Shown here: positions 6,453 through 19,357 of the stretch, piece by piece
Layout of the letters: each line of letters begins with the position of its first letter
Position numbering within the stretch: the first letter of the stretch is position 1
Assembly (NCBI GenBank): GCA_003221005.1
Contig: QHTZ01000070.1
Coordinates: 1 to 61,919, forward strand
Length of the DNA stretch: 61,919 nucleotides
DNA from: Gemmatimonadota bacterium
GTDB taxonomy: Bacteria; Gemmatimonadota; Gemmatimonadetes; Gemmatimonadales; GWC2-71-9
Reading direction: 5' to 3'
Notes under the pieces: generated by a model
What the model saw: only the letters and a program-made list of their open reading frames with translations
What the model was told of the DNA's origin: nothing
The model's database searches: none
Program-made: the position numbers and the translations under genes

Positions 6453-7415
6453 TCAGACCCGAACGCTCAGCGGCTCGCCCCGCAGCTTCGCCCGCAGCGT
6501 GGGGTGGGTCGCCCAGACGTACCACCCCATCGATGCCACCGCGAGCAGGTTCGCAACCAAGGTCAGCCAGACGCCCCACGCGCCCAACGCCCACTGGGCC
6601 CCGAGCGCGAGCGCGGCCACGACCACGCCTTCGAGCACGATCGCCGTCATCACGGCGAGGAGCAGGAAGGACGGTGAGCGCTCGATCTGCTCCGCGATCG
6701 TGACGAAGACGACGCCCGCGACTGCAAAGGCGACCCCGTGCACCACCGTGTACGCCGCCACGACGCCCAGGTTGACGTGGTAGGCCCCGTGACTCGAAGC
6801 GCCGAACAGCAGCGCGGACCCGAGCGCGCTGGGCGTGGCGAACGGGTGACCGGTTACCAGATCCACGAGGAAGAACCAGACTGCGACGACGGCAGCGCCG
6901 AGCAGACCCGTGATCACGCCGCGCGTGAGCTGCGGGTATGCCTTGAGCCCGCCGAGACCGAGCGGCACCTCCGCCCGTTCAGCGCGGTGCAGGTAGGCCA
7001 TCAGGACGAGCCCCGACACCAGATTCGCGCCGATCACATGCGGCCAGGGGATCACCTCCGAGGGGGGCAGGCCACTGAGGAACAGCCCCGTGTAGAAGAC
7101 CACCTCTTGCACGACGATGCCGAAGAACAGGCCAAGGAGCAGCCGGGGCGCCGTGTGCAGTACCGACATCACCCACGCCGCACCCACGCCGAGGAGGGCG
7201 TACACTCCCAAATGGACCACGGAATACACCGCGACCGCCCGAAACGTCGGCTCAATGACGGGAGCAACGTAGAGGGCGTACGCTAGGGCAGCTGGGGTGC
7301 GGAACGGGTAGCCTGCCAAGCTGTCGAGGATGAGGAACCACAGCGCAACTACCAAACCCGCGAGGACGCCGCCGACGACGCCGTGAGCGATCAGCTCGCT
7401 ACTGGATCGTTTCAT
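6453..7415 (-). CDS. Polytopic membrane protein with an internal duplication, function unknown
   Basis: Two homologous halves (G..VALWFLILD...G.PF.TP.AL...VYSVVH / AVWFFLVD...GHPFATPSAL...AYTVVH); GGGAGGG RBS before ATG 7415. Confidence 0.75.
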   Translation of the reverse strand: MKRSSSELIAHGVVGGVLAGLVVALWFLILDSLAGYPFRTPAALAYALYVAPVIEPTFRAVAVYSVVHLGVYALLGVGAAWVMSVLHTAPRLLLGLFFGIVVQEVVFYTGLFLSGLPPSEVIPWPHVIGANLVSGLVLMAYLHRAERAEVPLGLGGLKAYPQLTRGVITGLLGAAVVAVWFFLVDLVTGHPFATPSALGSALLFGASSHGAYHVNLGVVAAYTVVHGVAFAVAGVVFVTIAEQIERSPSFLLLAVMTAIVLEGVVVAALALGAQWALGAWGVWLTLVANLLAVASMGWYVWATHPTLRAKLRGEPLSVRV

Positions 7416-7516
7416 CGCTTTTCCCTCCCACTTCGTTCGAGTACGCAGGGGGAGGGCTCCCCAAAACCCAGGCCGGGGTTGGGCCACAACCCCGGGCCTC
7501 CCCCGCGGGTATCATA
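7416..7516 (-). promoter_or_regulatory. TATGAT -10 box followed by a structured ~90-nt 5' UTR with a possible anti-SD switch
   Basis: -10 at 7516-7511; hairpin CCGGGGTTG/CAACCCCGG; CCCTCCC (7456-7450) can pair with the 5' GGGGGAGG or with the SD GGGAGGG (7429-7423). Confidence 0.45.
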
Positions 7517-7591: not shown

Positions 7592-7990
7592 CTAGTCGGC
7601 GCTGGCGACTGCTCCCAGTGCGCGGCGCTGCACCTCGTCCGCGTTCACCGCGGTGAGGGCGGCGTTGTCGACTTCGCCCGTGCGGATGCGGATGACGCGC
7701 TCGATCGGCTGCACGAAGATCTTGCCGTCACCGACTTCACCCGTGCGCGCGGAGGAGAGGATCGCGTTGATCGTCGGCTCCACGAACGGCTCCGAGCAGA
7801 CCATCTCGATGCGCACCTTCTCGCGGAACTCGAGCACGAGGGTGGACCCGCGGTAGGTCTCCTGGAGCTCGCGCTCCCCGCCGTGCCCGCTCGCGCGGCT
7901 GATCGTGATGCCCGTTACTCCGGCTCGGAACAGCGCCGCCTTCACTTGAGGGAGACGCTCGGGTCTGATGACGGTCGTGATGAGCTTCAT
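7592..7990 (-). CDS. glnK: P-II nitrogen regulatory protein
   Basis: MKLITTVIRP, YRG T-loop, TGEVGDGKIFV, RIRTGE; directly downstream of amtB. Confidence 0.95.
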   Translation of the reverse strand: MKLITTVIRPERLPQVKAALFRAGVTGITISRASGHGGERELQETYRGSTLVLEFREKVRIEMVCSEPFVEPTINAILSSARTGEVGDGKIFVQPIERVIRIRTGEVDNAALTAVNADEVQRRALGAVASAD

Positions 7991-8028
7991 GTTCGGTTTG
8001 TCTCCAGATAGGTGTCCGTTGCCCGTCC

Positions 8029-9546
8029 TTACGCCGCCGATGCCTTCAGTGAAACCGCCGCCGATTCGCTGAGGATCACCGCCGACGCGACATCGGGCGT
8101 GTCGGGGTAGGCGAGCGCGCCCATTTCGGGGAGGTCGAGCCCCAGCTCCTCGGCTTCGGCCGAGACGCGATGACCGCCGACCAGCACGGCAGTGATCTTG
8201 TAGGCCACGTAGGTCATCAGGCCGACTGCCACGAAGTTCGTCACCCCGCCGATCACTTCGGCCGCGAATTGGCCGGCGTCGCCGTAGAACAGTCCACGCA
8301 CCGCCCCGTTCACACCGTTCCAGCCGTCTCCGTACGTCCCGTCGGCGAGCAGGCCGAGGGAGAGGATGCCCCAGAACCCGTTGACTCCGTGCACCGAGAT
8401 TGCTCCGACCGGGTCATCGATGCGGAGCCTGCGCTCGATGAAGAAGACCGCCATGCAGACCAAGACTCCCGCTACGCCGCCGATCAACACGGCGGACGGC
8501 GCGGTGACAAAGGCACAGGGCGCCGTGATCGCCACGAGCCCGGCGAGCGCGCCGTTCGCGAGCATGGACGGATCGGGTTTGCCGTACTTGAGCCACATGT
8601 ACAGCATCGCGGTGATGCTTCCCGCGGCCCCAGCCAGCATGGTGTTGGTAGCGATCACACCGATGCGAAGATCGGACCCCGCGAGGGTCGATCCGGGGTT
8701 GAACCCGAACCACCCGAAGCACAGGATGAACGTTCCCACCAGGGCCATGGGAATATTGTGGCCCGGGATCGGGTTCGGCGTCCCGTCGGCGTTGTACTTT
8801 CCGCGGCGCGGCCCGAGCAGCGAGGCGCCGACCAGCGCGATCACGCCACCCGTCAGGTGTACGACGGACGAGCCGGCGAAGTCCACGTGCCCATGCCCGA
8901 GCCCGAGGTTCACCCCCAGCTGCGACAGCCAGCCGCCGCCCCACACCCAGTTCGCATAGACCGGGTAAATGAACGCGCCGATGAACACGCTGAACACGCA
9001 GAACGCGGCGAAGCGCCAGCGCTCCGCCATCGCGCCCGTCGGAATCGTGGCGGTCGTGTCCATGAAGACCATCTGGAACAGGAAGTACGTGAAGACCGGT
9101 GCCGCGTACGCCACGCCGGTGAGGAAGAAGCCGCTGTGGCCGAACAGCCCCCACGCCTTACCGCCCAGGTGCAGGGCGAACTCCACGTTCAGCTTGTCGT
9201 AGCCGCCGAGGGTTGTCATGGGGCCCACGCCGCCCGCCTGGATCGCGAATCCCATTACCCAGTAGCCCATCATCGCAAGGCCGTACACCATAAAGTTCAT
9301 CGCAAACGTGTGCGCCGCGTTCTTAGCCCGTGTGAAGCCGGTCTCCACCATCGCGAAGCCGGCTTGCATGAACATCACGAGGAAGCCCGTGACGAGCGTC
9401 CACACGAAGTTGATGGCGACGGTGTTCGCCGCCGCCGCGACGTTGGCGGCCTTGGCGAGCGAGTCGATGGCAGCGGGTGCTTGCGCGACGAGAGCGAGCG
9501 GGCACACCAGTCCGGGCAGGACGGCGAGCAGGGCCGAGCGTTTCAT
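8029..9546 (-). CDS. amtB: Ammonium transporter
   Basis: MQAGFA, GAMAER, DFAGSSVVH, GWFGFNPGS, DDPVGAISVHG (twin His); N-terminal signal peptide from ATG 9546. Confidence 0.95.
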   Translation of the reverse strand: MKRSALLAVLPGLVCPLALVAQAPAAIDSLAKAANVAAAANTVAINFVWTLVTGFLVMFMQAGFAMVETGFTRAKNAAHTFAMNFMVYGLAMMGYWVMGFAIQAGGVGPMTTLGGYDKLNVEFALHLGGKAWGLFGHSGFFLTGVAYAAPVFTYFLFQMVFMDTTATIPTGAMAERWRFAAFCVFSVFIGAFIYPVYANWVWGGGWLSQLGVNLGLGHGHVDFAGSSVVHLTGGVIALVGASLLGPRRGKYNADGTPNPIPGHNIPMALVGTFILCFGWFGFNPGSTLAGSDLRIGVIATNTMLAGAAGSITAMLYMWLKYGKPDPSMLANGALAGLVAITAPCAFVTAPSAVLIGGVAGVLVCMAVFFIERRLRIDDPVGAISVHGVNGFWGILSLGLLADGTYGDGWNGVNGAVRGLFYGDAGQFAAEVIGGVTNFVAVGLMTYVAYKITAVLVGGHRVSAEAEELGLDLPEMGALAYPDTPDVASAVILSESAAVSLKASAA

Positions 9547-9589: not shown

Positions 9590-9618
9590 ATTGTGCACAA
9601 ACTGCATGATAAAGTCAA
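9590..9618 (-). promoter_or_regulatory. sigma70-type promoter of amtB-glnK overlapped by a TGCA-N5-TGCA site (9594-9606)
   Basis: TTGACT-17bp-CACAAT with extended TG in an AT-rich intergenic region. Confidence 0.6.
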
Positions 9619-9664
9619 CAGTATACGCCAAATGGCATGAATTATGTAAATTGTGACATCAACC

Positions 9665-9693
9665 TTGCATTTCTTGCGCCTTCAAGGTACCAT
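9665..9693 (+). promoter_or_regulatory. Possible promoter of the antiporter gene overlapped by TGCA-N5-TGCG (9666-9678)
   Basis: TTGCAT-17bp-TACCAT. Confidence 0.4.
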
Positions 9694-9738
9694 TAGGCAA
9701 TTCCGCCGCCCGGTCAGATCCTCTGCGGAGGCAACGCT

Positions 9739-11043
9739 TTGCCCAACGCTCCTGTCGATGCCGTGGCCCAGGTGATCCTGGCGCTCGCCGTCCTGCTCGC
9801 CGGGGCGAAGCTCGGCGGTCACCTCGCCGAGCGACTGGGACAGCCCGCGGTGCTGGGCGAGCTGGTCGCGGGGATCTTGGTGGGCAACCTCGACCTCGTG
9901 GGTGTGCCGTGGGTTCGCACACTCGGGAGCGACGGCACCATCGACGTCCTGGCCAAGCTCGGCGCCGTGGTCCTGCTGTTCGAGGTCGGGCTCCAATCCA
10001 CGGTGGGAGACATCCTCTCCGTTGGGGTGCGGTCGTTCGTCGTCGCAGTGCTGGGGGTGGTCACGCCGTGGGTGCTGGGGTGGGGCGTCGGCGCGCTCGC
10101 ATTGCCCAACGCTTCCCCTTACGTCCACGCCTTTCTGGGCGCTACGCTCACGGCCACGAGCGTCGGGATCACGGCGCGCGTCCTCAAGGACCTTGGGCGC
10201 GCGCAGTCGGCGGAGGCCCGCATCATCCTGGGCGCCGCAGTCATCGACGACGTGCTGGGGCTCGTGATCCTCGCCGTGATCGGGAGCGTAATCGCGGCGG
10301 CCAATCTCGGGACGGGGCTCTCCTACGGGCAGGTGGCCGCGGTGCTCTTCAAGGCGCTCGCGTTCCTGGTCGGCGCGCTCGCCGTCGGAGCGGTGTTCTC
10401 CCCGCGGCTGTTCGCGCTCACCGCGCGGCTGCGCGGTCAAGGCACCCTGCTCACGACCGCGCTGGTGTTCTGCTTCCTCCTCGCCTACCTCGCGTCGGCC
10501 GTCGGGCTCGCGCCGATCGTGGGCGCCTACGCGGCGGGACTAGTGCTCGAGGAGGCGCACTCGCAGAAGCTGGAAGAGCTGGTTCGGCCCATCGGGACGT
10601 TGCTCGTGCCCGTCTTCTTCGTCGTGATGGGCACGCGCGTGCGCCTCGAGGCGTTCGCGCATACGGAAATCCTGGGTCTCGCGACGCTGCTCACGGTGGC
10701 GGCGATCGTGGGCAAGCAGGCGTGCGCCCTGGGCGGGCTCGGCGCTCCCCTGAACCGGCTCGCGATCGGTCTCGGCATGATTCCCCGAGGCGAAGTGGGC
10801 CTGATCTTCGCCAACCTGGGCCTCGGGCTCACGCTGCACGGCGTGCCCGTCATCGACGAGCGGGTGTTCTCGGCCGTCGTGCTGATGGTCGTCCTGACGG
10901 CACTGGTCACGCCGCCGGCCCTCAAGTGGAGTCTGGCGCGCGCGCCGCGACGTGCTCACGCCGCGGTCGCTGCAACGCAAAACGTGCAGGTTGTGCAACA
11001 GTTCAAAGGCAGCTTTGCAGTGAGCGACGGGAGTACCACTTGA
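9739..11043 (+). CDS. Cation:proton antiporter (CPA2, NapA/KefB-like)
   Basis: QPAVLGEL, LLFEVGL, ATSVGIT, AVIDD, MIPRGEVGLI; TTG start after GGAGG. Confidence 0.9.
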   Translation: MPNAPVDAVAQVILALAVLLAGAKLGGHLAERLGQPAVLGELVAGILVGNLDLVGVPWVRTLGSDGTIDVLAKLGAVVLLFEVGLQSTVGDILSVGVRSFVVAVLGVVTPWVLGWGVGALALPNASPYVHAFLGATLTATSVGITARVLKDLGRAQSAEARIILGAAVIDDVLGLVILAVIGSVIAAANLGTGLSYGQVAAVLFKALAFLVGALAVGAVFSPRLFALTARLRGQGTLLTTALVFCFLLAYLASAVGLAPIVGAYAAGLVLEEAHSQKLEELVRPIGTLLVPVFFVVMGTRVRLEAFAHTEILGLATLLTVAAIVGKQACALGGLGAPLNRLAIGLGMIPRGEVGLIFANLGLGLTLHGVPVIDERVFSAVVLMVVLTALVTPPALKWSLARAPRRAHAAVAATQNVQVVQQFKGSFAVSDGSTT

Positions 11044-11108
11044 GCCAGCGCCGATTGGGTCTCAACTGGCAGAGTTTGCTTGACGTCGTACCGGACGCGG
11101 GGTACCTT
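10976..11108 (+). promoter_or_regulatory. glnA promoter with upstream tandem CGCA-N5-TGCA-N5-TGCA sites
   Basis: Sites at 10976-10997; TTGACG(11080)-17bp-TACCTT(11103). Confidence 0.6.
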
Positions 11109-11193
11109 CCCGCGTGCCCGCAGTCCCTTGTGCCCGCAGGCCGTAGCCTGACCAACCCTGGAGCGACTTGATCCGCCGGAGGACCAGTTTTCT

Positions 11194-12663
11194 ATGACTG
11201 CAACAGCCAAACCAACCGCCACGCCACACGCCAAGGGCGCATCCGCGCCCGCCGACGTGATTCGCCGGGCGCGCGAGCACGGGGTGCAGGTCGTGGACCT
11301 GCGCTTCACCGACCTGCCCGGAACCTGGCAGCACTTTTCGATTCCGCTGGGGGAGCTGACCGAGGATCTGTTCGCGGAGGGGATCGGGTTCGACGGGTCG
11401 TCCATCCGGGGATTCCAGGCGATCAACGAGAGCGACATGCTGCTCTTCCCCGACGCGGGGAGCGCGTTCGTGGACCCCTGTCTCGAGGTGCCGACGCTGT
11501 CGCTCACCTGCGACGTCAAGGATCCTGTGACCGGGGAGCCCTATTCGCGCGACCCGCGCTACGTGGCCCAGAAGGCCGAAGGGCATCTCGGGAAGACGGG
11601 CATCGCCGACACGGCGTACTACGGGCCGGAGGCCGAGTTCTACATCTTCAACTCGGTGCGCTTCGATCAGAACGCGCACGAGGGCTACTACCACGTCGAC
11701 TCCGAGGAAGGGATCTGGAACTCGGGGCAGGACGGCAACGGCACCCCCAACCTGGGGCACCGGCCGCGCCATAAGGAAGGCTACTTCCCGGTACCGCCGA
11801 CCGACCGTCTGCAGGACCTTCGCTCCAAGATCATGCTCGCCATGATCGCCGCCGGGGTCGAGGTCGAGGTGCACCACCACGAGGTGGGCACGGCCGGTCA
11901 AACGGAGATCGACATGCGGTTCAAAACGCTCACGCGCATGGCCGATCAGATGATGATCTACAAGTACGTGGTGAAGAACGTGTGCCGCCAGAACGGCTAC
12001 ACGGCCACGTTCATGCCCAAGCCGCTGTTCGGGGACAACGGCTCCGGGATGCACGTCCACATGAGCTTGTGGAAGGACTCGAAGCCCTTGTTCTTCGACG
12101 CGAAGGGGTACGGTCTGATCTCCGATACGGCGCGCTGGTACATCGGAGGGCTCATCAAGCATTCACCGGCCCTGCTCGCCTTCGCGGCACCGACGACGAA
12201 CAGCTACCGGCGGCTGGTGCCGGGGTACGAGGCGCCGATCAACCTGATCTACTCGCAGCGCAACCGCTCGGCGATCTGCCGCATTCCCGTGTATTCCAAG
12301 TCGCCCAAGGCGAAGCGCGTCGAGTACCGGGCCCCGGACCCCTCGTGCAACCCGTATCTCACGTTCGCGGCGCTGTTGATGGCCGGGCTCGACGGCGTCA
12401 AGAACAAGATCGAGCCGCCCAAGCCGATGGACGTGGACCTCTACGAGCTGGAGCCGGAGGAGCGCAAGCATGTGAAGAACACGCCGGGCTCGCTCGCGGA
12501 CACGTTGGCGGCGCTCGAGGCCGATCATGCGTTCCTGCTGGAGGGCGGGGTGTTCACGCCGGACGTGATCGAGACCTGGCTCAGCTACAAGCGGACGAGA
12601 GAGGACGATCCGGTACGGCTGCGGCCACATCCCTACGAGTTCTTCCTGTACTACGACGTGTGA
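11194..12663 (+). CDS. glnA: Glutamine synthetase type I-beta
   Basis: [40 protein letters not shown], adenylylation-loop DLYEL, YYDV C-terminus. Confidence 0.97.
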
Positions 12664-12674
12664 AGCGAGGAACT

Positions 12675-12702
12675 GAGGCGGCCGGGAAGCTCCGGCCGCC
12701 TC
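12675..12702 (+). other. GC-rich intergenic hairpin between the two GS genes
   Basis: GAGGCGGCCGG-gaagct-CCGGCCGCCTC, 11-bp perfect stem with a weak TTGT tail. Confidence 0.6.
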
Positions 12703-12709
12703 TTGTGCC

Positions 12710-14062
12710 ATGACCGCGACCGCGGAAAAGACGACCGGAGCGACGAAGAAGGAGATCCTCAGTCTCTGCCGCGAGCAGGGCGTAGCGTTCCTGCGGCTGC
12801 AGTTCACCGACATCCTTGGCGTCAACAAGAACTTCGAGGTGCCTGAGAGCCAGTTCGACAAGGCCCTCTCGGGCGACATCCGCTTCGACGGCTCGGCGAT
12901 CGAAGGCTTCGTCCGGATCGAAGAGTCGGACATGGTGCTCAAGCCCGATCTCGACACCTTCCGGGTGCTCCCCTCCGACGAGCCGGGCGGGCGGGTGGCG
13001 CGGCTGCTGTGCGACATCTACAACCCCGATGGCTCCCCCTTCGCCGGCTGCCCCCGGCAGACCCTCAAGCGGCAGATCGCGCGGGCTGCGGCGCTCGGCT
13101 ACGAAGTAATGATCGGCGTCGAGGCCGAGTTCTACATCTTCCAGCTGGACGCGGACGGCAAGCCCACCACGCGCACCCACGACAGCGGCGGCTACTTCGA
13201 CCTGACGCCGGTCGACAAGGCCGAGGAGATCCGGCGGCTGATCGTGCGCGACCTCGTGTCGATGGGTTTCGAGGTCGAGGGGGGGCACCACGAGGTCGCA
13301 CCCGGTCAGCACGAGATCGACTTCCGCTACGCCGGGGCGCTCGACACGGCGGACAACCTGGCGACCTTCAAGTTCGTCGTGCGCAACGTCGCGTACCGCC
13401 ACGGCTACCTCGCCACGTTCATGCCGCAGCCGATCTTCGGTCAGGCCGGCTCTGGCATGCACACCAGCCATTCCCTGTTCCGGCAGGGGAAGAACGCGTT
13501 CTACGAACGGAAGGCGCAGTGGGAGCTGTCCAAGGTCGCCCTCCAGTACATCGGGGGACTGCTGAAGCACGCCCGCGGCTTTTGCGCCGTCACTAATCCG
13601 CTGGTCAACAGCTACAAGCGCCTGGTGCCGGGCTACGAGGCGCCGGTGCACGTCGCCTGGTCGATGCGCAACCGCTCTCCGCTGATCCGCATCCCCGAGC
13701 GCCGCGAGGTGGGCACGCGCTGCGAGGTGCGCATGCCCGACCCCGCGGCCGATCCCTACCTCTCGCTCACCGTGCAGATCGCCGCCGGCCTGGATGGCGT
13801 CGAGCATGAGTTCACGCCGCCCGACCCGGTCAACAAGAACATCTTCGAGATGAGCTACCGCGAGCGGCGCCACTTCCGCATCGACGACCTCCCCCGGGAC
13901 CTGCACGAGGCGCTCGAGTACCTCGAGAAGGACGAGGTTGTCCGGGCCGCCCTCGGCGACCACATCTACGAGCGGTTCATCGAGGCGAAGCAGCGGGAGT
14001 GGCAGGAGTACATCGGGCGCGTCAGTGAGTGGGAGCTGGAGCGATACCTCGGGCTGTACTGA
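12710..14062 (+). CDS. glnA: Second glutamine synthetase, type I-alpha-like
   Basis: LRLQFTDILG, FDGSAIEGFVRIEESD, HHEVAPGQHEIDF, PGYEAP, NRSPLIRIP; lacks the beta insert; NIFEM at the adenylylation position. Confidence 0.9.
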   Translation: MTATAEKTTGATKKEILSLCREQGVAFLRLQFTDILGVNKNFEVPESQFDKALSGDIRFDGSAIEGFVRIEESDMVLKPDLDTFRVLPSDEPGGRVARLLCDIYNPDGSPFAGCPRQTLKRQIARAAALGYEVMIGVEAEFYIFQLDADGKPTTRTHDSGGYFDLTPVDKAEEIRRLIVRDLVSMGFEVEGGHHEVAPGQHEIDFRYAGALDTADNLATFKFVVRNVAYRHGYLATFMPQPIFGQAGSGMHTSHSLFRQGKNAFYERKAQWELSKVALQYIGGLLKHARGFCAVTNPLVNSYKRLVPGYEAPVHVAWSMRNRSPLIRIPERREVGTRCEVRMPDPAADPYLSLTVQIAAGLDGVEHEFTPPDPVNKNIFEMSYRERRHFRIDDLPRDLHEALEYLEKDEVVRAALGDHIYERFIEAKQREWQEYIGRVSEWELERYLGLY

Positions 14063-14076
14063 ACAACTACAAATGC

Positions 14077-14165
14077 GTGGTGCGTAGTACGTGGTTGCCA
14101 GCGGTCCCGGACGCCGTCGCGCGGCTCCGTTGGGACTTGTTCCGCCGGATGCAACCACGCACCAC
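14077..14165. repeat. Interrupted inverted repeat between the convergent GS and porin genes
   Basis: CGTGGTTGC (14090-98) pairs with GCAACCACG (14151-59); GTGGTG pairs with CACCAC. Confidence 0.5.
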
Positions 14166-14203
14166 TCACCTATATTTTTCCTGCCGACACTATGTCGTCA
14201 CCA

Positions 14204-15364
14204 TCAATACAGGTACGCGACACTAAGCGCGAAGCTCACCTGCCCGTCCTTGCCATTGAACACCTGAAAGCTCGAGTGATCGTAGCGCACTTCTGGTCGC
14301 ACCAGCGCGTTGGGCCAGCTTTTCACGTTCAGGGTGCCCGTCAGGCTCCACAGCTTGTGGGCGGCGGTGCTCAGCAACCCGAATGCGCCCGACGTGCGCG
14401 CGGTTTGCGCGTCATTGAGATAGTCCGCGCGGCCGGCGAAGTTGACTTTGGGTGAGAGGTCGACCGCAAGCCAGCCGCCCACCGCCCACCAGGTCGCGTC
14501 CTGGGTCGGATCGGGGAGGGCCGCGTTCGCCTTCTCTTTCCCCCAGTCACCCTGAATCCATACTGAGGCCTTGCTTCCCATCTTCTGGTTGAGCAGGACA
14601 TCGATCCCGTAGCGGGACGCGTTACTGTTTGGCTCCTGCGCCCCCACGTACCCGACGATGCCGAGGGCGGTGTTGGCGGACGTCAGGCCGAGCCGGCCCA
14701 TGAAGTCTTTGTTCCCGTTGGTGACGACGACGCGGTCCCACCCGTTGTCGATCCGGAGCTCGATGTCGGCGCTGCTCGAGAACTTGTAGTCCAGCTCGAG
14801 ACCGGTGGCGGTGAAGTTCTCGACGTAGATGAACTGGTTACCCTCCGACCAGTTCGGGTTCACCACGTCTTCGATGACTTCTAGGCCCATCATGGTCACG
14901 AACTTGCCGGCCTTGAACTGGATGCCGTTGCCGTTCGCGGTCGGCAGGTTCAGGGTGACGTACAGCTGCGTGATTTCCCCGTCCGTCCCCACGTTGAAGC
15001 CGCTCGCCCCGCTGCCGCTCGAGTGGAGGACCTCCGCGTTTTGACCCAGCAGTACGTCGGCATGAACGCCCGCGTCCACCTTCTTAGCATCAAAGGGACG
15101 GTCGGCCGTCAGCTTCAGCGCGTTCAGGGTGAAGGCGTTGGAGTAGCGGTCGTACAGCCTGCCGAGGATTGTGTTGGGAGGGACGGCCTCCGTCGAATAG
15201 GCGTAGGATGCCTCGACGTACCCGCTGAGCTTGAAGCTCGGCGGTGGCGCGGGGGCGGGGGCGGGGGCGGGGGCAGCCGGCGGAGCCTGTCCGGCGAGGG
15301 GCGCGGCCACGGCGCCGAGCCAAGCGAGGCTGAGCGCGCTGACCATACGGAGTGGGGGCGGCAT
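14204..15364 (-). CDS. Outer-membrane beta-barrel protein (putative porin, BBP2/OmpL-like)
   Basis: Signal peptide, Ala-Pro linker, SGYVEASY, GKF...G.E, RPEVRYD, terminal aromatic residue; GAGGA RBS. Confidence 0.75.
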   Translation of the reverse strand: MPPPLRMVSALSLAWLGAVAAPLAGQAPPAAPAPAPAPAPPPSFKLSGYVEASYAYSTEAVPPNTILGRLYDRYSNAFTLNALKLTADRPFDAKKVDAGVHADVLLGQNAEVLHSSGSGASGFNVGTDGEITQLYVTLNLPTANGNGIQFKAGKFVTMMGLEVIEDVVNPNWSEGNQFIYVENFTATGLELDYKFSSSADIELRIDNGWDRVVVTNGNKDFMGRLGLTSANTALGIVGYVGAQEPNSNASRYGIDVLLNQKMGSKASVWIQGDWGKEKANAALPDPTQDATWWAVGGWLAVDLSPKVNFAGRADYLNDAQTARTSGAFGLLSTAAHKLWSLTGTLNVKSWPNALVRPEVRYDHSSFQVFNGKDGQVSFALSVAYLY

Positions 15365-15425
15365 GGCGGTCCTCAGTAAGGAGAAGTGATCGCGCGACGG
15401 AGCGGATAGCTCACCTCGCGCAGGT

Positions 15426-15549
15426 ATGTTAACCCTGCAGTTGCAGTAGTGTCAAGTGTTTTGTGCATTTTTTGCACCACCTTGGCGTTACCATGCATAC
15501 TTTGGCACATGACGAATCGGAGGCAAGTTATTATTGTGCATGTGATGCG
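15426..15549 (-). promoter_or_regulatory. Porin promoter with GTGCA-N5-TGCAC (15463-15477) and TGCA-N5-TGCG (15537-15549) sites
   Basis: TTGACA(15455-50)-18bp-TAACAT(15431-26). Confidence 0.6.
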
Positions 15550-17276: not shown

Positions 17277-19357
17277 TCAGTCCGTCGCGGCTTCGGCGGC
17301 GGGGGCGGCGTGGGCCTCCTTGAACTTGATCGGCTCGGCCCAGAACCCGGCGCAGAAGTCGCCGAACGCGCGCGCCCGGTCCAAGATCTCGCGCGCGGCC
17401 GCCTCTCCCGGCTCCGCGCGCTTCAGGCGCGCGAACTCCCCTGACAATTCGCTCCACGAGCCGCCGGTCTGTCCGGAGAGCACGAAGATGTTTTCGAACT
17501 CCCACAGCGCCTGCTCCGGTGTGAACGGGTCCACCAGCCGGCGATAGAGCGGGACCCGCGCGGCGGCCGCCGCCGCCTCGTACCCGGCGAAGATCGCGGC
17601 GCCGAACTCCTTGTGCGCGAAGTACGCCTCGGCGCGTGCCCCCAGTCCTGATAGAAGGAGGGGTCCGCTTCGAACGTCGGCACGGAGCGCAGCGGCTCGA
17701 GGGCCTCCTTGAGACGCGCCTCGCCCAAACGCGCCATGCACGCAGTGAAGTCCTCGCCGTCCTGCCGCTCACTCTCGAACAGCCCGAGCAAGGTCTGCAA
17801 CACCCTGACGCAGTTCTTCGCGGGATACTTGCCCATCACTTCGCCGATCTGCGCCCGGTCGAGGCCGATCCGGCCGCCCACGAACAGGAGGTACGAAGGC
17901 ACCGTGCGCTTATCCTCGGTCATGGCCGCGCTGTGAAAGCCGACGTCGGCGACGGCGTGCTGGGCGCAGCCGTTCGGGCATCCGGAAATCTTGATCCTGA
18001 GGGTACGCGCCAGCTCGCGATATTGCGCGAGCTCACCCCCGTCCTCGAGCGCGGCCGAGAGCGCCGAGCCGAGGCCCTTCGCCGAAGCGATGCCGAGACG
18101 GCACGTGTCGGCTGCGGGGCAGGTGGTGATGTCCTCGATCGTCTCGGCGCCGGGATCGCCGAGCTCGATGCTGCGGAGGGCGTCGTATAGGTCGGGCAGC
18201 TCGTCCTCGCGCACCCAGGGCAGATAGAAATTCTGGTCGACCGCAATGCGTGCCTCGCCCGCCGAGTAGCGCCGCACGACCTCGGCGAGCTTGCGGAGCG
18301 GATCGCTCAGGATGTCCCCTAACCGCAGCCGGACGTTGACACCCTTCAGTCCCGGGATCTTGTGGGGCACCACGGAGTCGCGGTACCAGCGACGGTATTC
18401 GGGCCGCTCGGTGCGCGGATCGCGCACCGGGAGTCCGGCACGCGGCGGAACCTCGAAGGGCTGGTGAACCTCCTGTACATCCTCGGGCGGGAAGGGGATC
18501 GGACCGACGTGCTGGCGCTCGAGATCGAGCGCTTCGCGAAACCGCGGCCACCCCATGGCCTGCACCAGGAACTTCATGCGCGCCTTCATACGGGACTTGC
18601 GCTCGCCGTAGCGGTCGAATACCCGCAGGATGGCGGCGGCGAAGTTGTACATCTCCTCGACTGGGAGGAAGTCGGTGTACTCGTGCGACAGCATCGGCGC
18701 CCCGCCCATCCCGCCCGCGACCTGGATCTTGAAGCCGCGCCGCTCACGGCCGTCATCGGAACGGACCTGCGCGATGAACCCGATGTCGTGCAGCCGTACG
18801 GCCGAGTGGTCCTCGGTGCAGCCTTCGAAGGTGATCTTGAATTTCCGCCCCAGCACTTGGTTGTGGTCGTTGCGCACGAGATAGCGGAACAGGGCGTGGG
18901 CGTAAGGGGCGACGTCGAACACCTCGGTGGGCGACGTCCCCGAGCGGTAGCAGGCGGTGATGTTGCGGACGGTGTTGCCGCACGCCTCGCGCGTCGTGAT
19001 GCCCGCCGCCGCGAGGAAGCGCATGAGGTTCGGCGCTTCTTCGAGCTTGAGGTAATAGATCTGCACGTCTTCGCGCGTGGTCAGGTGCAGGAATCCCGAG
19101 CCGAAGCGTTCGGCAGCGTCAGCCAAGGTGACGAGCTGGTCGGCTGAGAGGACGCCTCCCGGGATCTTGATGCGCTGCATCTGCACGCCTTCCTGGCGCT
19201 GGGCGTACGTGCCGAACTGCAGCCGCAGCTTCTGCATCTTGACTTCGCCCAGCTCGCCCCGGCGGTACTGCTTGATCTCCTCTTCGTAGAGATCGAGCTC
19301 CGCCGCGATGTGGTCAGGGAGCGGTGCGGTAGGTGCGACGCGATCGATCGCGGTCAT
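17277..19357 (-). CDS. Siroheme sulfite (or nitrite) reductase with a frame break near 17640 separating the C-terminal helical domain
   Basis: HLTTRED, CGNTVRN, RKFK, CPAADTC..SGCPNGC siroheme/[4Fe-4S] cysteines; operon with cysH-cysG; protein-like sequence continues in another frame (ARAEAYFAHKEF...) to 17277. Confidence 0.85.

Follow-up and report, generated by a model that had tools for sequence, protein, structure and literature searches.

An inverted repeat, TGCA-N5-TGCA, that recurs upstream of nitrogen genes in the Gemmatimonadales is probably an operator to which one sequence-specific transcription factor binds as a dimer, and this factor would run a nitrogen-assimilation regulon in the order. 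The dyad would thus mark a nitrogen control circuit in one order of soil bacteria. Its motif, spacing, fixed positions, conservation and gene set are demonstrated within and across genomes. The starting point is a 61.9-kb stretch of DNA (the window) from a Gemmatimonadales MAG (G000, 94% complete), in which the initial annotation had listed five dyad sites; re-reading the letters confirmed all five (Table 1).

Table 1. Dyads, promoters and genes of the nitrogen loci in the window
Feature	Position	Strand	Details
glnK/P-II	7592-7990	minus	Pfam P-II, E 8e-27; operon with amtB
amtB	8029-9546	minus	Pfam Ammonium_transp, E 8e-107; operon with glnK spans 7592-9546
amtB promoter, TTGACT-17-CACAAT	9618->9590	minus	Promoter scan; -35 conserved in G003 and G002
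Perfect dyad, TGCA-CAAAC-TGCA, TGCAcaaacTGCA	9594-9606		Overlaps amtB promoter spacer and first two -10 bases
Near-perfect dyad, TGCA-TTTCT-TGCG, TGCAtttctTGCG	9666-9678		72 bp (centre to centre) upstream of first amtB dyad; PWM 12.6
Tandem, CGCA-AAACG-TGCA-GGTTG-TGCA, CGCAaaacgTGCAggttgTGCA	10976-10997		Upstream of glnA -35, gaps 82 and 91 nt
Putative degenerate remnant, GTCT-CAACT-GGCA	11059-11071		Proximal position, 8 nt before glnA -35; scores below any threshold used
glnA promoter, TTGACG-17-TACCTT	11080-11108	plus	Read from sequence and -35 gap analysis
glnA	11194-12663	plus	489 aa; Pfam Gln-synt_C and Gln-synt_N
glnA2	12710-14062	plus	450 aa; Pfam Gln-synt_C and Gln-synt_N; glnA-glnA2 span 11194-14062
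BBP2/OmpL-like beta-barrel porin	14204-15364	minus	Pfam BBP2, E 4e-52
Porin promoter, TTGACA-18-TAACAT	15455->15426	minus	Promoter scan
Perfect dyad, TGCA-TTTTT-TGCA, with flanks GTGCAtttttTGCAC	15464-15476 (15463-15477 with flanks)		8 nt upstream of porin -35; proximal, centre about -50
Near-perfect dyad, TGCA-TGTGA-TGCG, TGCAtgtgaTGCG	15537-15549		Distal: 81 nt upstream of porin -35, 73 bp from proximal dyad; PWM 21.8

The placement of these sites, over the amtB spacer and -10 box and upstream of the porin, agrees with a promoter scan that returned 4 promoter-like sites against 0.8 expected. The glnA promoter is absent from the scan list because its -10 box matches at only 3/6 positions. The sigma70-type assignment made in the initial annotation holds for the amtB and porin promoters; judged by their sequences, the target promoters are sigma-70-like, not sigma-54. 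The perfect amtB dyad is the best PWM match in the genome (23.6 bits), and its position after a conserved TTGACA is retained in two relatives, as TGCG-N5-TGCA in G003 and as TGCA-N5-TGCA in G002. The 72 bp between the two amtB dyads agree with the 72-74 bp pair rule seen in relatives. Upstream of glnA, the perfect copy within the tandem (10985-10997) lies 82 nt before the -35 box, which is the conserved distal position, and the string at 11059-11071 is read, by inference only, as a degenerate proximal glnA operator. The proximal porin dyad forms part of a composite match of dyad and -35 box (G000:C61:15451-15476, minus strand) whose layout recurs in G005 and G003.

Exact copies of the dyad are enriched in the window (3 seen, 0.56 expected, sd 0.72), and at least three were reached in 1/100 dinucleotide-preserving shuffles. 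The 2.79-Mb genome holds 46 exact copies, which were sorted into coding and intergenic with GC3-based gene calls (2787 genes, 92% coding). Three copies lie between genes (C61:9594, C61:15464 and C27:31427), and a fourth, C61:10985, falls within the last 58 nt of a called Na+/H+ exchanger ORF. These four dyads outside ordinary coding DNA all flank nitrogen genes: one stands at amtB, one at glnA, one at the porin and one at a second glnK-amtB operon. This second operon lies on another contig, where 51 nt separate the dyad from a P-II gene, with amtB coming next; this dyad sits at a gap of 8 nt to the -35 box and is accompanied by a degenerate site 73 bp upstream.

Orthologous promoters preserve both the dyad and its N5 spacing. 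Across 17 orthologous glnA upstream regions, a set without G000 and the unpublished G020, TGCA pairs 0-20 nt apart are spaced by exactly 5 nt in 14/32 cases, and ten control tetramers have no preferred spacing; N5 is strongly preferred. Extended by its conserved neighbouring bases, the dyad becomes the 17-bp palindrome YGTGCA-N5-TGCACR, bordered by A/T-rich sequence. Flank statistics, drawn from 55 distinct exact sites in 53 nitrogen-gene regions, give G before the first half in 55% of sites, C after the second half in 55% and Y/R at the next position in 85%, with A/T-rich sequence beyond; the centre columns of this set are biased because part of it was selected for an A/T centre. In the glnA orthologues the gap from dyad to -35 box is 8 nt in 8/17 and 80-82 nt in 8/17, with extra copies at 165-166 and 240 nt. 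The proximal operator ends 8 nt upstream of -35 and is therefore centred near -50, and the distal copy lies 72-74 bp further upstream, seven helical turns away on the same helix face. The gap-8 promoters carry a TTGACA -35 box of sigma-70 type. In genus g21 of family f3 the two halves are separated by 3 nt and the gap to the -35 box is 10 nt. The glnA genes of genus g1, G000 included, have sites at distal positions only (81-240 nt upstream), a proximal operator not being recognisable. Beyond glnA, amtB, glnK and the porin, the dyad recurs in relatives upstream of a type III glutamine synthetase gene, a nitrate-reductase-like gene and amino-acid permease genes; the glnA upstream regions outside the Gemmatimonadales are without it (5/5).

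Order-wide searches recover the same gene set. The composite TGCA-N5-TGCA-N8-TTGAC has 51 matches in 151 genomes of Gemmatimonadales, against 23 for the reversed motif used as a control. The excess is concentrated in family f1 (32 matches, 9 in the control), with families f2 and f3 barely above the control (19 vs 14). A nitrogen gene lies directly downstream in 21/30 of the composite loci examined (19/28 when G000 and the unpublished G095, with one locus each, are left out) and in the other 9/30 none does; the 21 comprise glnA (12), glnK (3), amtB (3), the porin (2) and a molybdopterin oxidoreductase with an Fe4S4 domain (1). The A/T-centred form, TGCA-W5-TGCA, has 44 sites against 8 for its control. 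Among the retrieved W5 loci with at least 57% GC, 9/23 flank amtB, glnK, glnA or type III glutamine synthetase, and others adjoin an amino-acid permease, an aminotransferase with C-N hydrolase or a periplasmic binding protein; 13/36 retrieved W5 loci belong to genomes that have stretches of lower GC, and there the match looks random. An amino-acid permease gene of G005, divergent from glnA2, has a dyad at gap 8.

It is scarcely credible that no protein binds the dyads and that they reflect only the base composition of AT-rich intergenic DNA or the common ancestry of a few promoters. TGCA is indeed short, and the relatives are not independent, so cross-genome counts overstate the case; the spacing spectrum nonetheless peaks only at N5, the flanks are palindromic, the distance to -35 is fixed, and promoters that are not homologous and differ in their surrounding sequence (glnA, amtB, glnK, porin, permease, GSIII, nitrate-reductase-like) carry the same dyad. 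All computational tests run support the single factor for amtB-glnK, glnA and the porin put forward in the initial annotation, the control itself being predicted from sequence. That one factor is at work, that it binds cooperatively and which way it controls its targets are points we infer; on balance, a dual activator and repressor seems somewhat the better description. Its operators would act in phased pairs, a proximal one near -50 and a helper 72-74 bp further upstream, additional copies lying around 165 and 240 nt in some promoters. Two dimers on the same helix face would cooperate, probably via a small DNA loop, and at glnA, glnK-amtB, the porin and further scavenging genes the factor at -50 would bring in RNA polymerase. 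At promoters whose core overlaps the operator, such as that of the window's amtB-glnK operon, the factor would act as a repressor. The same operator and regulon might instead belong to a pure repressor like Bacillus GlnR or Corynebacterium AmtR, bound when nitrogen is plentiful, which is possible but not the reading we would expect to hold. A strong operator a little ahead of -35 and a weaker one covering the -35 box or the spacer, filled cooperatively with help from the operator 73 bp upstream, would then shut a strong promoter. The gap-8 promoters already combine a near-consensus TTGACA with a spacer of 17 bp and a -10 box of the form TAnnnT, which favours repression over activation, and the window's amtB dyad covers spacer and -10 box. 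About 10/27 gap-8 promoters and all four g21 glnA promoters have an additional TGCA half-site 3-4 nt past the -35 box, an arrangement compatible with a second dimer sitting on -35. The B. subtilis glnRA promoter has just such a two-site layout, with one GlnR site shortly before the -35 box and a second that overlaps the box, both needed for repression (excerpt of PMC6191146). Against pure repression, the best operator is clear of the core promoter in most promoters, the invariant 8-nt gap is what polymerase contact would demand, and in genus g1 the glnA sites all lie 81-240 nt upstream, a proximal operator not being recognisable there.

Who binds the dyad is a separate question, and the neighbourhoods of the target loci yield no consistently adjacent regulator gene, as the initial annotation had supposed for the window. 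An NtrC-type regulator, one of the genome's sigma-54 enhancer-binding proteins acting on sigma-54 or sigma-70 promoters, is an improbable answer. The genome does encode rpoN (Sigma54_DBD, E 4e-64) and nine enhancer-binding proteins with strong Sigma54_activat matches, three of them with GxFTDA in place of GAFTGA; Rhodobacter NtrC acts on sigma-70 promoters. Proteobacterial NtrC also controls the same kinds of genes (glnA, amtB-glnK, porins, nitrate assimilation) through a similar TGCAC half-site and several sites upstream of glnA, which recalls the multiple glnA sites 80-240 nt upstream in genus g1. A dyad in G112 stands just before the gene of a C45-protein orthologue, but it has no conserved counterpart before the G000 orthologue, and the genes around the targets include none for an enhancer-binding protein. 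Downstream of the dyads a GG-N10-GC sigma-54 promoter is missing (the nearest look-alikes are N8 or N11), the targets have TTGACA-16/18-TAnnnT promoters instead, and a dyad 8 nt from -35 is not enhancer geometry. The NtrC consensus is of the type TGCACC-N5-GGTGCA; the TGCA cores here are 5 nt apart, not 9, as the initial annotation had noted of the spacing, and the flanking bases are inverted, with G before the first half and C after the second.

A LysR tetramer using the dyad as a T-N11-A box, with one recognition and one activation site, merits hardly any credence. The 13-mer does fit T-N11-A, as the initial annotation had pointed out, and every region pairs a perfect copy with a weaker one. 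The Lrp protein Ss-LrpB has an operator with the core TTGCA-N5-TGCAA. Escherichia coli IlvY, a LysR protein, has predicted sites with this same core (excerpt of PMC5002191). Neither family was found in G000 or G004, the IlvY and Ss-LrpB targets are unrelated, and the paired sites are 73 bp apart rather than about 20, centred near -50 and -124 where recognition near -65 and activation near -35 would be expected; no divergent regulator gene accompanies the targets. The LysR domain HTH_1 has 0 matches in G000, in a search whose control was positive in 13/14 reference genomes, and was not found in 15/41 relatives. Four of these, the 100%-complete congener G004 as well as G015, G017 and G031, carry the dyad at nitrogen genes, so that of the LysR hint the fit of the string stands and the identity does not; with no HTH_1 in G000 or in the dyad-bearing, complete G004, LysR was rejected. 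AsnC_trans_reg has no match in G000, G004, G016, G023 or G024 (14/41 relatives are without it in all), IclR_C was found in 0/5 genomes, and GntR was not found in G000 or G004. Corynebacterium AmtR is a TetR-type repressor released by GlnK, and it resembles the present case in its palindromic operator at amtB, glnA and other nitrogen genes, its high-GC host and its gene located elsewhere. The AmtR box, of the type CTAT-N6-ATAG, is unlike the dyad, and the dyad neighbourhoods inspected show no conserved TetR gene tied to it: one TetR gene adjoins a dyad, in G159, and has no orthologue in G000, G004, G005 or G031.

The best regulator lead, to be held tentatively, is a single-copy 124-aa MerR-family protein (G000:C116:10041-10415) that could be GlnR/TnrA-like with altered specificity. 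It occurs once per genome in 40/41 relatives, at 63-97% identity, and in 149/151 genomes of the phylum, and the nearest Atlas clusters are from Gemmatimonadota. GlnR and TnrA are MerR-related winged-helix regulators of Firmicutes governed by glutamine synthetase, which in its feedback-inhibited form is bound by their C-terminal tail, and TnrA activates from about -50. We know of no phased 73-bp operator pairs in Bacillus. The GlnR/TnrA box, TGTNAN7TNACA, is a 17-bp inverted repeat, and members of the family both activate and repress from sites just upstream of or overlapping -35 (excerpts of PMC4335299 and PMC6191146). The initial annotation had set the dyad apart from this box; YGTGCA-N5-TGCACR does differ at positions 4-6 and 12-14, but the two are not wholly unlike, since both are 17-bp palindromes with a GT-N11-AC frame. 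Both regulons also comprise amtB/glnK, glnA, nitrate assimilation and amino-acid uptake genes, and GlnR (7tec_A, E 2e-7, only 34.6 bits) is the closest solved relative of this MerR protein, the only universal small one here. The protein differs in scoring 22.4 bits against the NCBIfam TnrA model, far below the cut-off of 140, and in having a histidine aligned with the DNA-reading arginine of GlnR (Arg26 by position, three residues before a conserved Arg-Tyr pair). Rather than standing with glnA, its gene is part of a conserved plsY-gpsA operon and has no dyad nearby. The phylum-wide occurrence of the protein counts against it, given that the dyad is missing from 5/5 glnA upstream regions taken from outside the order. 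A more speculative and rather unlikely extension is that Gemmatimonadota nitrogen assimilation is governed by this lineage-specific cousin of Firmicute GlnR/TnrA through a re-specified 17-bp box and phased operator pairs seven helical turns apart, possibly sensing via the GSI-alpha-like glnA2 product. If true, the GlnR/TnrA logic of coupling to glutamine synthetase would extend beyond Gram-positives.

Further observations concern the target genes themselves. Soil metatranscriptomes hold RNA contigs identical to 11150-11419 and 11160-11357, which demonstrate only that glnA RNA matching the window exists. Because porin homologues directly follow amtB, glnK or glnA2 in 36/51 loci, the porin is, on gene order, tied to ammonium uptake. 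Verrucomicrobial homologues of the porin bear sigma-54-like TGGCAC-N5-TGC elements.

Each of the five perfect or near-perfect TGCA-N5-TGCA dyads that the initial annotation had proposed as marks of a nitrogen regulon is present at its assigned position in the window. Exact dyads number 3 in the window against 0.56 expected, a count reached by 1 of 100 shuffles, and 46 in the whole Gemmatimonadales genome (G000; 2.79 Mb, 69% GC, 141 contigs, the window being C61). With gene calls from our own crude GC3-based set (2787 genes, 92% coding), three of the 46 are intergenic and a fourth falls within the exchanger ORF, in its final 58 nt; three of this set of four are the window sites, the other is C27:31427. 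Behind the C27 dyad come 8 nt, TTGACA, a spacer of 16 nt and TAGCTT; a P-II gene follows, then amtB. All G000 dyads outside ordinary coding DNA (4/4) thus adjoin ammonium or glutamine genes. PWM sites at C130, C119, C128, C66 and C80 of G000 look fortuitous, and the C130 one, a high-scoring site inside an IS200/RAYT-like ORF (C130:8440-9320) that has copies of a GC-rich palindrome on its flanks, was judged spurious.

Genes, promoters and candidate regulators (window coordinates unless a contig or locus is named; gap, nt between dyad and −35 hexamer)
Feature	Position	Strand	Details
glnK (P-II)	7592-7990	minus	
amtB	8029-9546	minus	
amtB promoter			TTGACT-17-CACAAT; two sites 72 bp apart; strong site overlaps spacer and −10
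Na+/H+ exchanger	9739-11043	plus	
glnA promoter	11080-11108		TTGACG-17-TACCTT; perfect dyad at gap 82; remnant only at gap 8
glnA	11194-12663	plus	489 aa
glnA2	12710-14062	plus	450 aa
BBP2 porin	14204-15364	minus	
Porin promoter	15455 to 15426	minus	TTGACA-18-TAACAT; perfect dyad at gap 8, near-perfect at gap 81
Citramalate/isopropylmalate-synthase-like gene	end 17273, start uncertain	plus	
glnK-amtB promoter, G000	C27		dyad at gap 8; degenerate site 73 bp upstream
Enhancer-binding proteins with G(A/S)FTDA, G000	C109:9669-11039; C120:8711-10057; C45:1609-3006		
HTH_17-EIIA fusion	L027:34-732 (G003:C82); also G002:C153		232 aa

Dyad position is quantised relative to the −35 hexamer. Among 17 glnA orthologues, a set that leaves out the own genome and the unpublished G020, the gap is 8 nt in 8/17 and 80-82 nt in 8/17, and additional copies lie at gaps of 165-166 and 240 nt. 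These values translate into centre-to-centre distances of 72-75 and 84 bp, and thus into whole numbers of helical turns. The window keeps to this pattern, and the pairing of a perfect with a near-perfect site in each region, noted in the initial annotation, is explained as the two members of such a phased pair. The targets have sigma-70-type promoters with TTGACA-like −35 boxes, as they had looked in the initial annotation, and no correctly spaced GG/GC sigma-54 element was found there. In genus g21 (L041-L044), the glnA promoters have halves 3 nt apart and 10 nt from the −35, an extra TGCAC 3 nt 3' of it, and a distal near-dyad at gap 60.

Conservation in orthologous amtB and glnA promoters, an expectation of the regulon proposal, is borne out. 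Upstream of amtB, relatives G003 (TGCG-N5-TGCA) and G002 (TGCA-N5-TGCA) hold the site within the spacer 3' of a conserved TTGACA, while perfect dyads lie farther upstream of G013 amtB and of an amtB paralogue in G018. In the 17 glnA upstreams, spacing is exactly 5 in 14 of the 32 TGCA pairs 0-20 nt apart; ten control tetramers gave nothing comparable. A consensus of YGTGCA-N5-TGCACR was drawn from 55 distinct exact sites in 53 nitrogen-gene regions, a set partly chosen for its A/T centre. The flanks are palindromic, with G 5' of the first half in 55% and C 3' of the second half in 55%, and the next-outer position is Y/R in 85% of the 55 sites, beyond which the DNA is A/T-rich. Because relatives are non-independent, the cross-genome counts here and below overstate support; the unpublished G020 and G095, on which none of the conclusions depends, are counted in the tallies over 41 and 151 genomes. 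The dyad is missing from all five glnA upstreams sampled in other classes and families of the phylum (0/5); on so small a sample, the operator seems specific to Gemmatimonadales as an order. At one of the loci outside the order (L262, G166:C21), an OmpR-type response-regulator gene ends just 5' of glnA and the intergenic region is without a TGCA dyad, a sign that this lineage may use another nitrogen regulator.

Sequence searches outline the putative regulon. Across 151 genomes of the order, TGCA-N5-TGCA-N8-TTGAC, a composite of dyad and −35, matches 51 times and its reversed control 23 times (32 against 9 in family f1; 19 against 14 in f2 and f3 combined). A nitrogen gene lies directly downstream in 21 of the 30 composite loci returned, including one from G000 and one from G095: glnA in 12, glnK in 3, amtB in 3, the porin in 2, and in 1 a molybdopterin oxidoreductase that carries an Fe4S4 domain and is likely an assimilatory nitrate reductase. 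At the other 9 loci no nitrogen gene is seen, one of these loci being cut by a contig end. A search with an A/T centre (TGCA-W5-TGCA) returned 44 sites against 8 in the control. Of the 36 loci fetched, 13 belong to lower-GC stretches, and these look random. The remaining 23 include 9 next to amtB, glnK, glnA or a type III glutamine synthetase; several more adjoin an amino-acid permease, a periplasmic binding protein, or an aminotransferase accompanied by a C-N hydrolase. The G005 amino-acid permease gene that diverges from glnA2 is served by a dyad at gap 8.

The porin appears to be part of this regulon. A homologue lies directly 3' of amtB (21), glnK (14) or glnA2 (1) in 36/51 loci, which ties the porin to ammonium uptake, and dyads are present at porins with their own promoter (L054, L068, L081, G003 and G005). 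The relatives recovered with the porin bear titles that are nearly all Gemmatimonadota, Gemmatimonadetes or Gemmatimonadales MAGs. Upstream of the Verrucomicrobia BBP2 porin homologues L105 and L110 are sigma-54-like TGGCAC-N5-(G/T)TGC elements, so this porin seems to be under nitrogen control in a second phylum as well, through another system. Proteins of 184 and 523 aa encoded 3' of the porin in relatives were considered and set aside; they resemble a lipoprotein and an outer-membrane protein.

The geometry constrains how a factor might act. For a 17-bp palindrome, the implied binder is a dimer whose two helix-turn-helix units are spaced by one turn of the helix, and site pairs 73 bp apart on the same helix face imply cooperation of two dimers. 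The invariant 8-nt gap implies one of two things: contact with RNA polymerase, hence activation, or a second, weak operator over the −35 that cooperates with the first, hence repression. We lean towards a dual regulator: at gap-8 promoters the predicted factor, bound near −50, would contact RNA polymerase and activate, and at the window amtB, where the dyad overlaps the spacer and −10, the same factor would repress. A pure repressor, with the weak operator over the −35 cooperating with the gap-8 operator, is the lesser possibility, though a sizeable one. It would account for the further TGCA 3-4 nt past the −35 in ~10/27 gap-8 promoters and for their near-consensus −35 boxes, and PMC6191146 describes GlnR repression of B. 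subtilis glnRA from the same layout. Set against pure repression, the strongest operator tends to lie clear of the core promoter, and glnA of genus g1 has far-upstream sites only.

Several regulator families can be set aside. Ss-LrpB reads TTGCA-N5-TGCAA. IlvY of E. coli has predicted sites of the same sequence (PMC5002191). The initial annotation had suggested a LysR box, a reading that fails: the LysR HTH_1 domain was found neither in G000 nor in 15/41 relatives, including the 100%-complete congener G004 as well as G015, G017 and G031, each of which carries the dyad beside nitrogen genes. A search for the AsnC domain drew a blank in G000, in G004 and in 14/41 relatives overall; both families known to read TTGCA-N5-TGCAA are thereby removed. 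IclR was found in 0/5 genomes, and GntR in neither G000 nor G004. G000 encodes sigma-54 and nine enhancer-binding proteins, three of which carry G(A/S)FTDA instead of the sigma-54-contacting GAFTGA loop. LysR, AsnC, IclR, GntR and classical NtrC/sigma-54 are ruled out or unlikely.

Neighbourhoods yielded no general candidate. In the window, no regulator is tied to the nitrogen genes, the only ones being an XRE-type protein and a two-component pair 17-20 kb off. No regulator recurs in ~130 locus neighbourhoods, and a PWM scan of all G000 intergenic DNA found no autoregulated regulator gene behind a good site. A fusion of an excisionase-type HTH_17 with a PtsN-like PTS EIIA, divergent from glnK-amtB, was rejected as the common regulator, being full-length in only 12/41 relatives and not found in G000, though it may serve as an accessory regulator with a link to the nitrogen PTS. 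Also dropped were a conserved ~100-aa ORF upstream of glnA in many relatives (without a Pfam family; its G000 homologue adjoins a menaquinone-synthesis gene, away from glnA), a TetR beside a dyad in G159 (without an orthologue in four test genomes), a G112 dyad 5' of an enhancer-binding-protein gene (not conserved in G000), and a MarR beside glnK and LysR and AsnC near targets, each a single case.

The sole regulator found to be present everywhere is a 124-aa MerR-family protein (C116:10041-10415 in G000), with one copy per genome in 40/41 relatives (63-97% identity) and presence in 149/151 phylum genomes, the latter tally also including the unpublished G197. Its closest solved structure is GlnR (7tec_A, E 2e-7), followed by CarH and, more weakly, TnrA; its nearest Atlas clusters are from Gemmatimonadota. 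TnrA and GlnR read TGTNAN7TNACA chiefly via an arginine contacting G and T (PMC4335299). The operator here retains G-T and A-C at the same positions in a 17-bp frame, whereas a His in the MerR candidate aligns with the DNA-reading arginine of GlnR. This substitution may accompany the altered inner bases of the site; alternatively, it may mean that the protein reads something else. Counting against the candidate, its gene sits in a conserved plsY-gpsA operon without a dyad nearby, it scores below every NCBIfam equivalog cut-off, and its distribution is far broader than the operator's apparent range. From these comparisons, it is a doubtful though tangible candidate for the dyad-binding regulator.

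In function, the operator is of a familiar kind, comparable to those of NtrC, NtcA, TnrA/GlnR, AmtR and actinobacterial GlnR. By the tests run, it lies outside LysR, Lrp, IclR, GntR and classical NtrC/sigma-54 systems; placing it in the GlnR/TnrA family would be tentative. What is new is the motif itself, its fixed geometry (8 nt and ~81 nt) and the phylum. A full-text literature search found no description of nitrogen regulation for Gemmatimonadota, and IlvY of E. coli was the only system for which it gave the motif string.

Gemmatimonadota rank with the most common phyla of soil. The finding supplies a ready regulon (glnA, glnA2, amtB, glnK, an ammonium-linked porin, type III glutamine synthetase, and nitrate-reductase-like and amino-acid uptake genes) and a precise operator and promoter geometry testable in cultured Gemmatimonas. 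It also narrows the regulator search through a short list of excluded families, and nitrogen-responsive genes in hundreds of soil MAGs become annotatable from sequence alone.

The remaining window genes are for the most part devoted to amino-acid biosynthesis. An NIR_SIR gene (17423-19357) was rejected as a nitrite reduction gene, since its cluster is one of sulfate assimilation. The 344-aa gene 3' of glnK in the amtB operon (6453-7487), also considered, encodes a multi-pass membrane protein without a Pfam family, and its homologues are kept after glnK or amtB in genus g1. The glnA product has what we take to be an adenylylation-type LYEL motif, and that of glnA2 presumably resembles the Bacillus-type enzyme; the 46-nt gap between the two genes (~12664-12709) holds what reads as a GC-rich hairpin. 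Immediately 3' of the −10, the predicted glnA leader carries the 10-mer GTGCCCGCAG as a direct repeat (11114-11123 and 11130-11139). Soil metatranscriptome contigs, none of which reaches the dyad regions or the intergenic DNA, match 11150-11419, 11160-11357 and 11234-11426 without differences, so public RNA libraries contain glnA RNA from the G000 organism or from a strain nearly identical to it.
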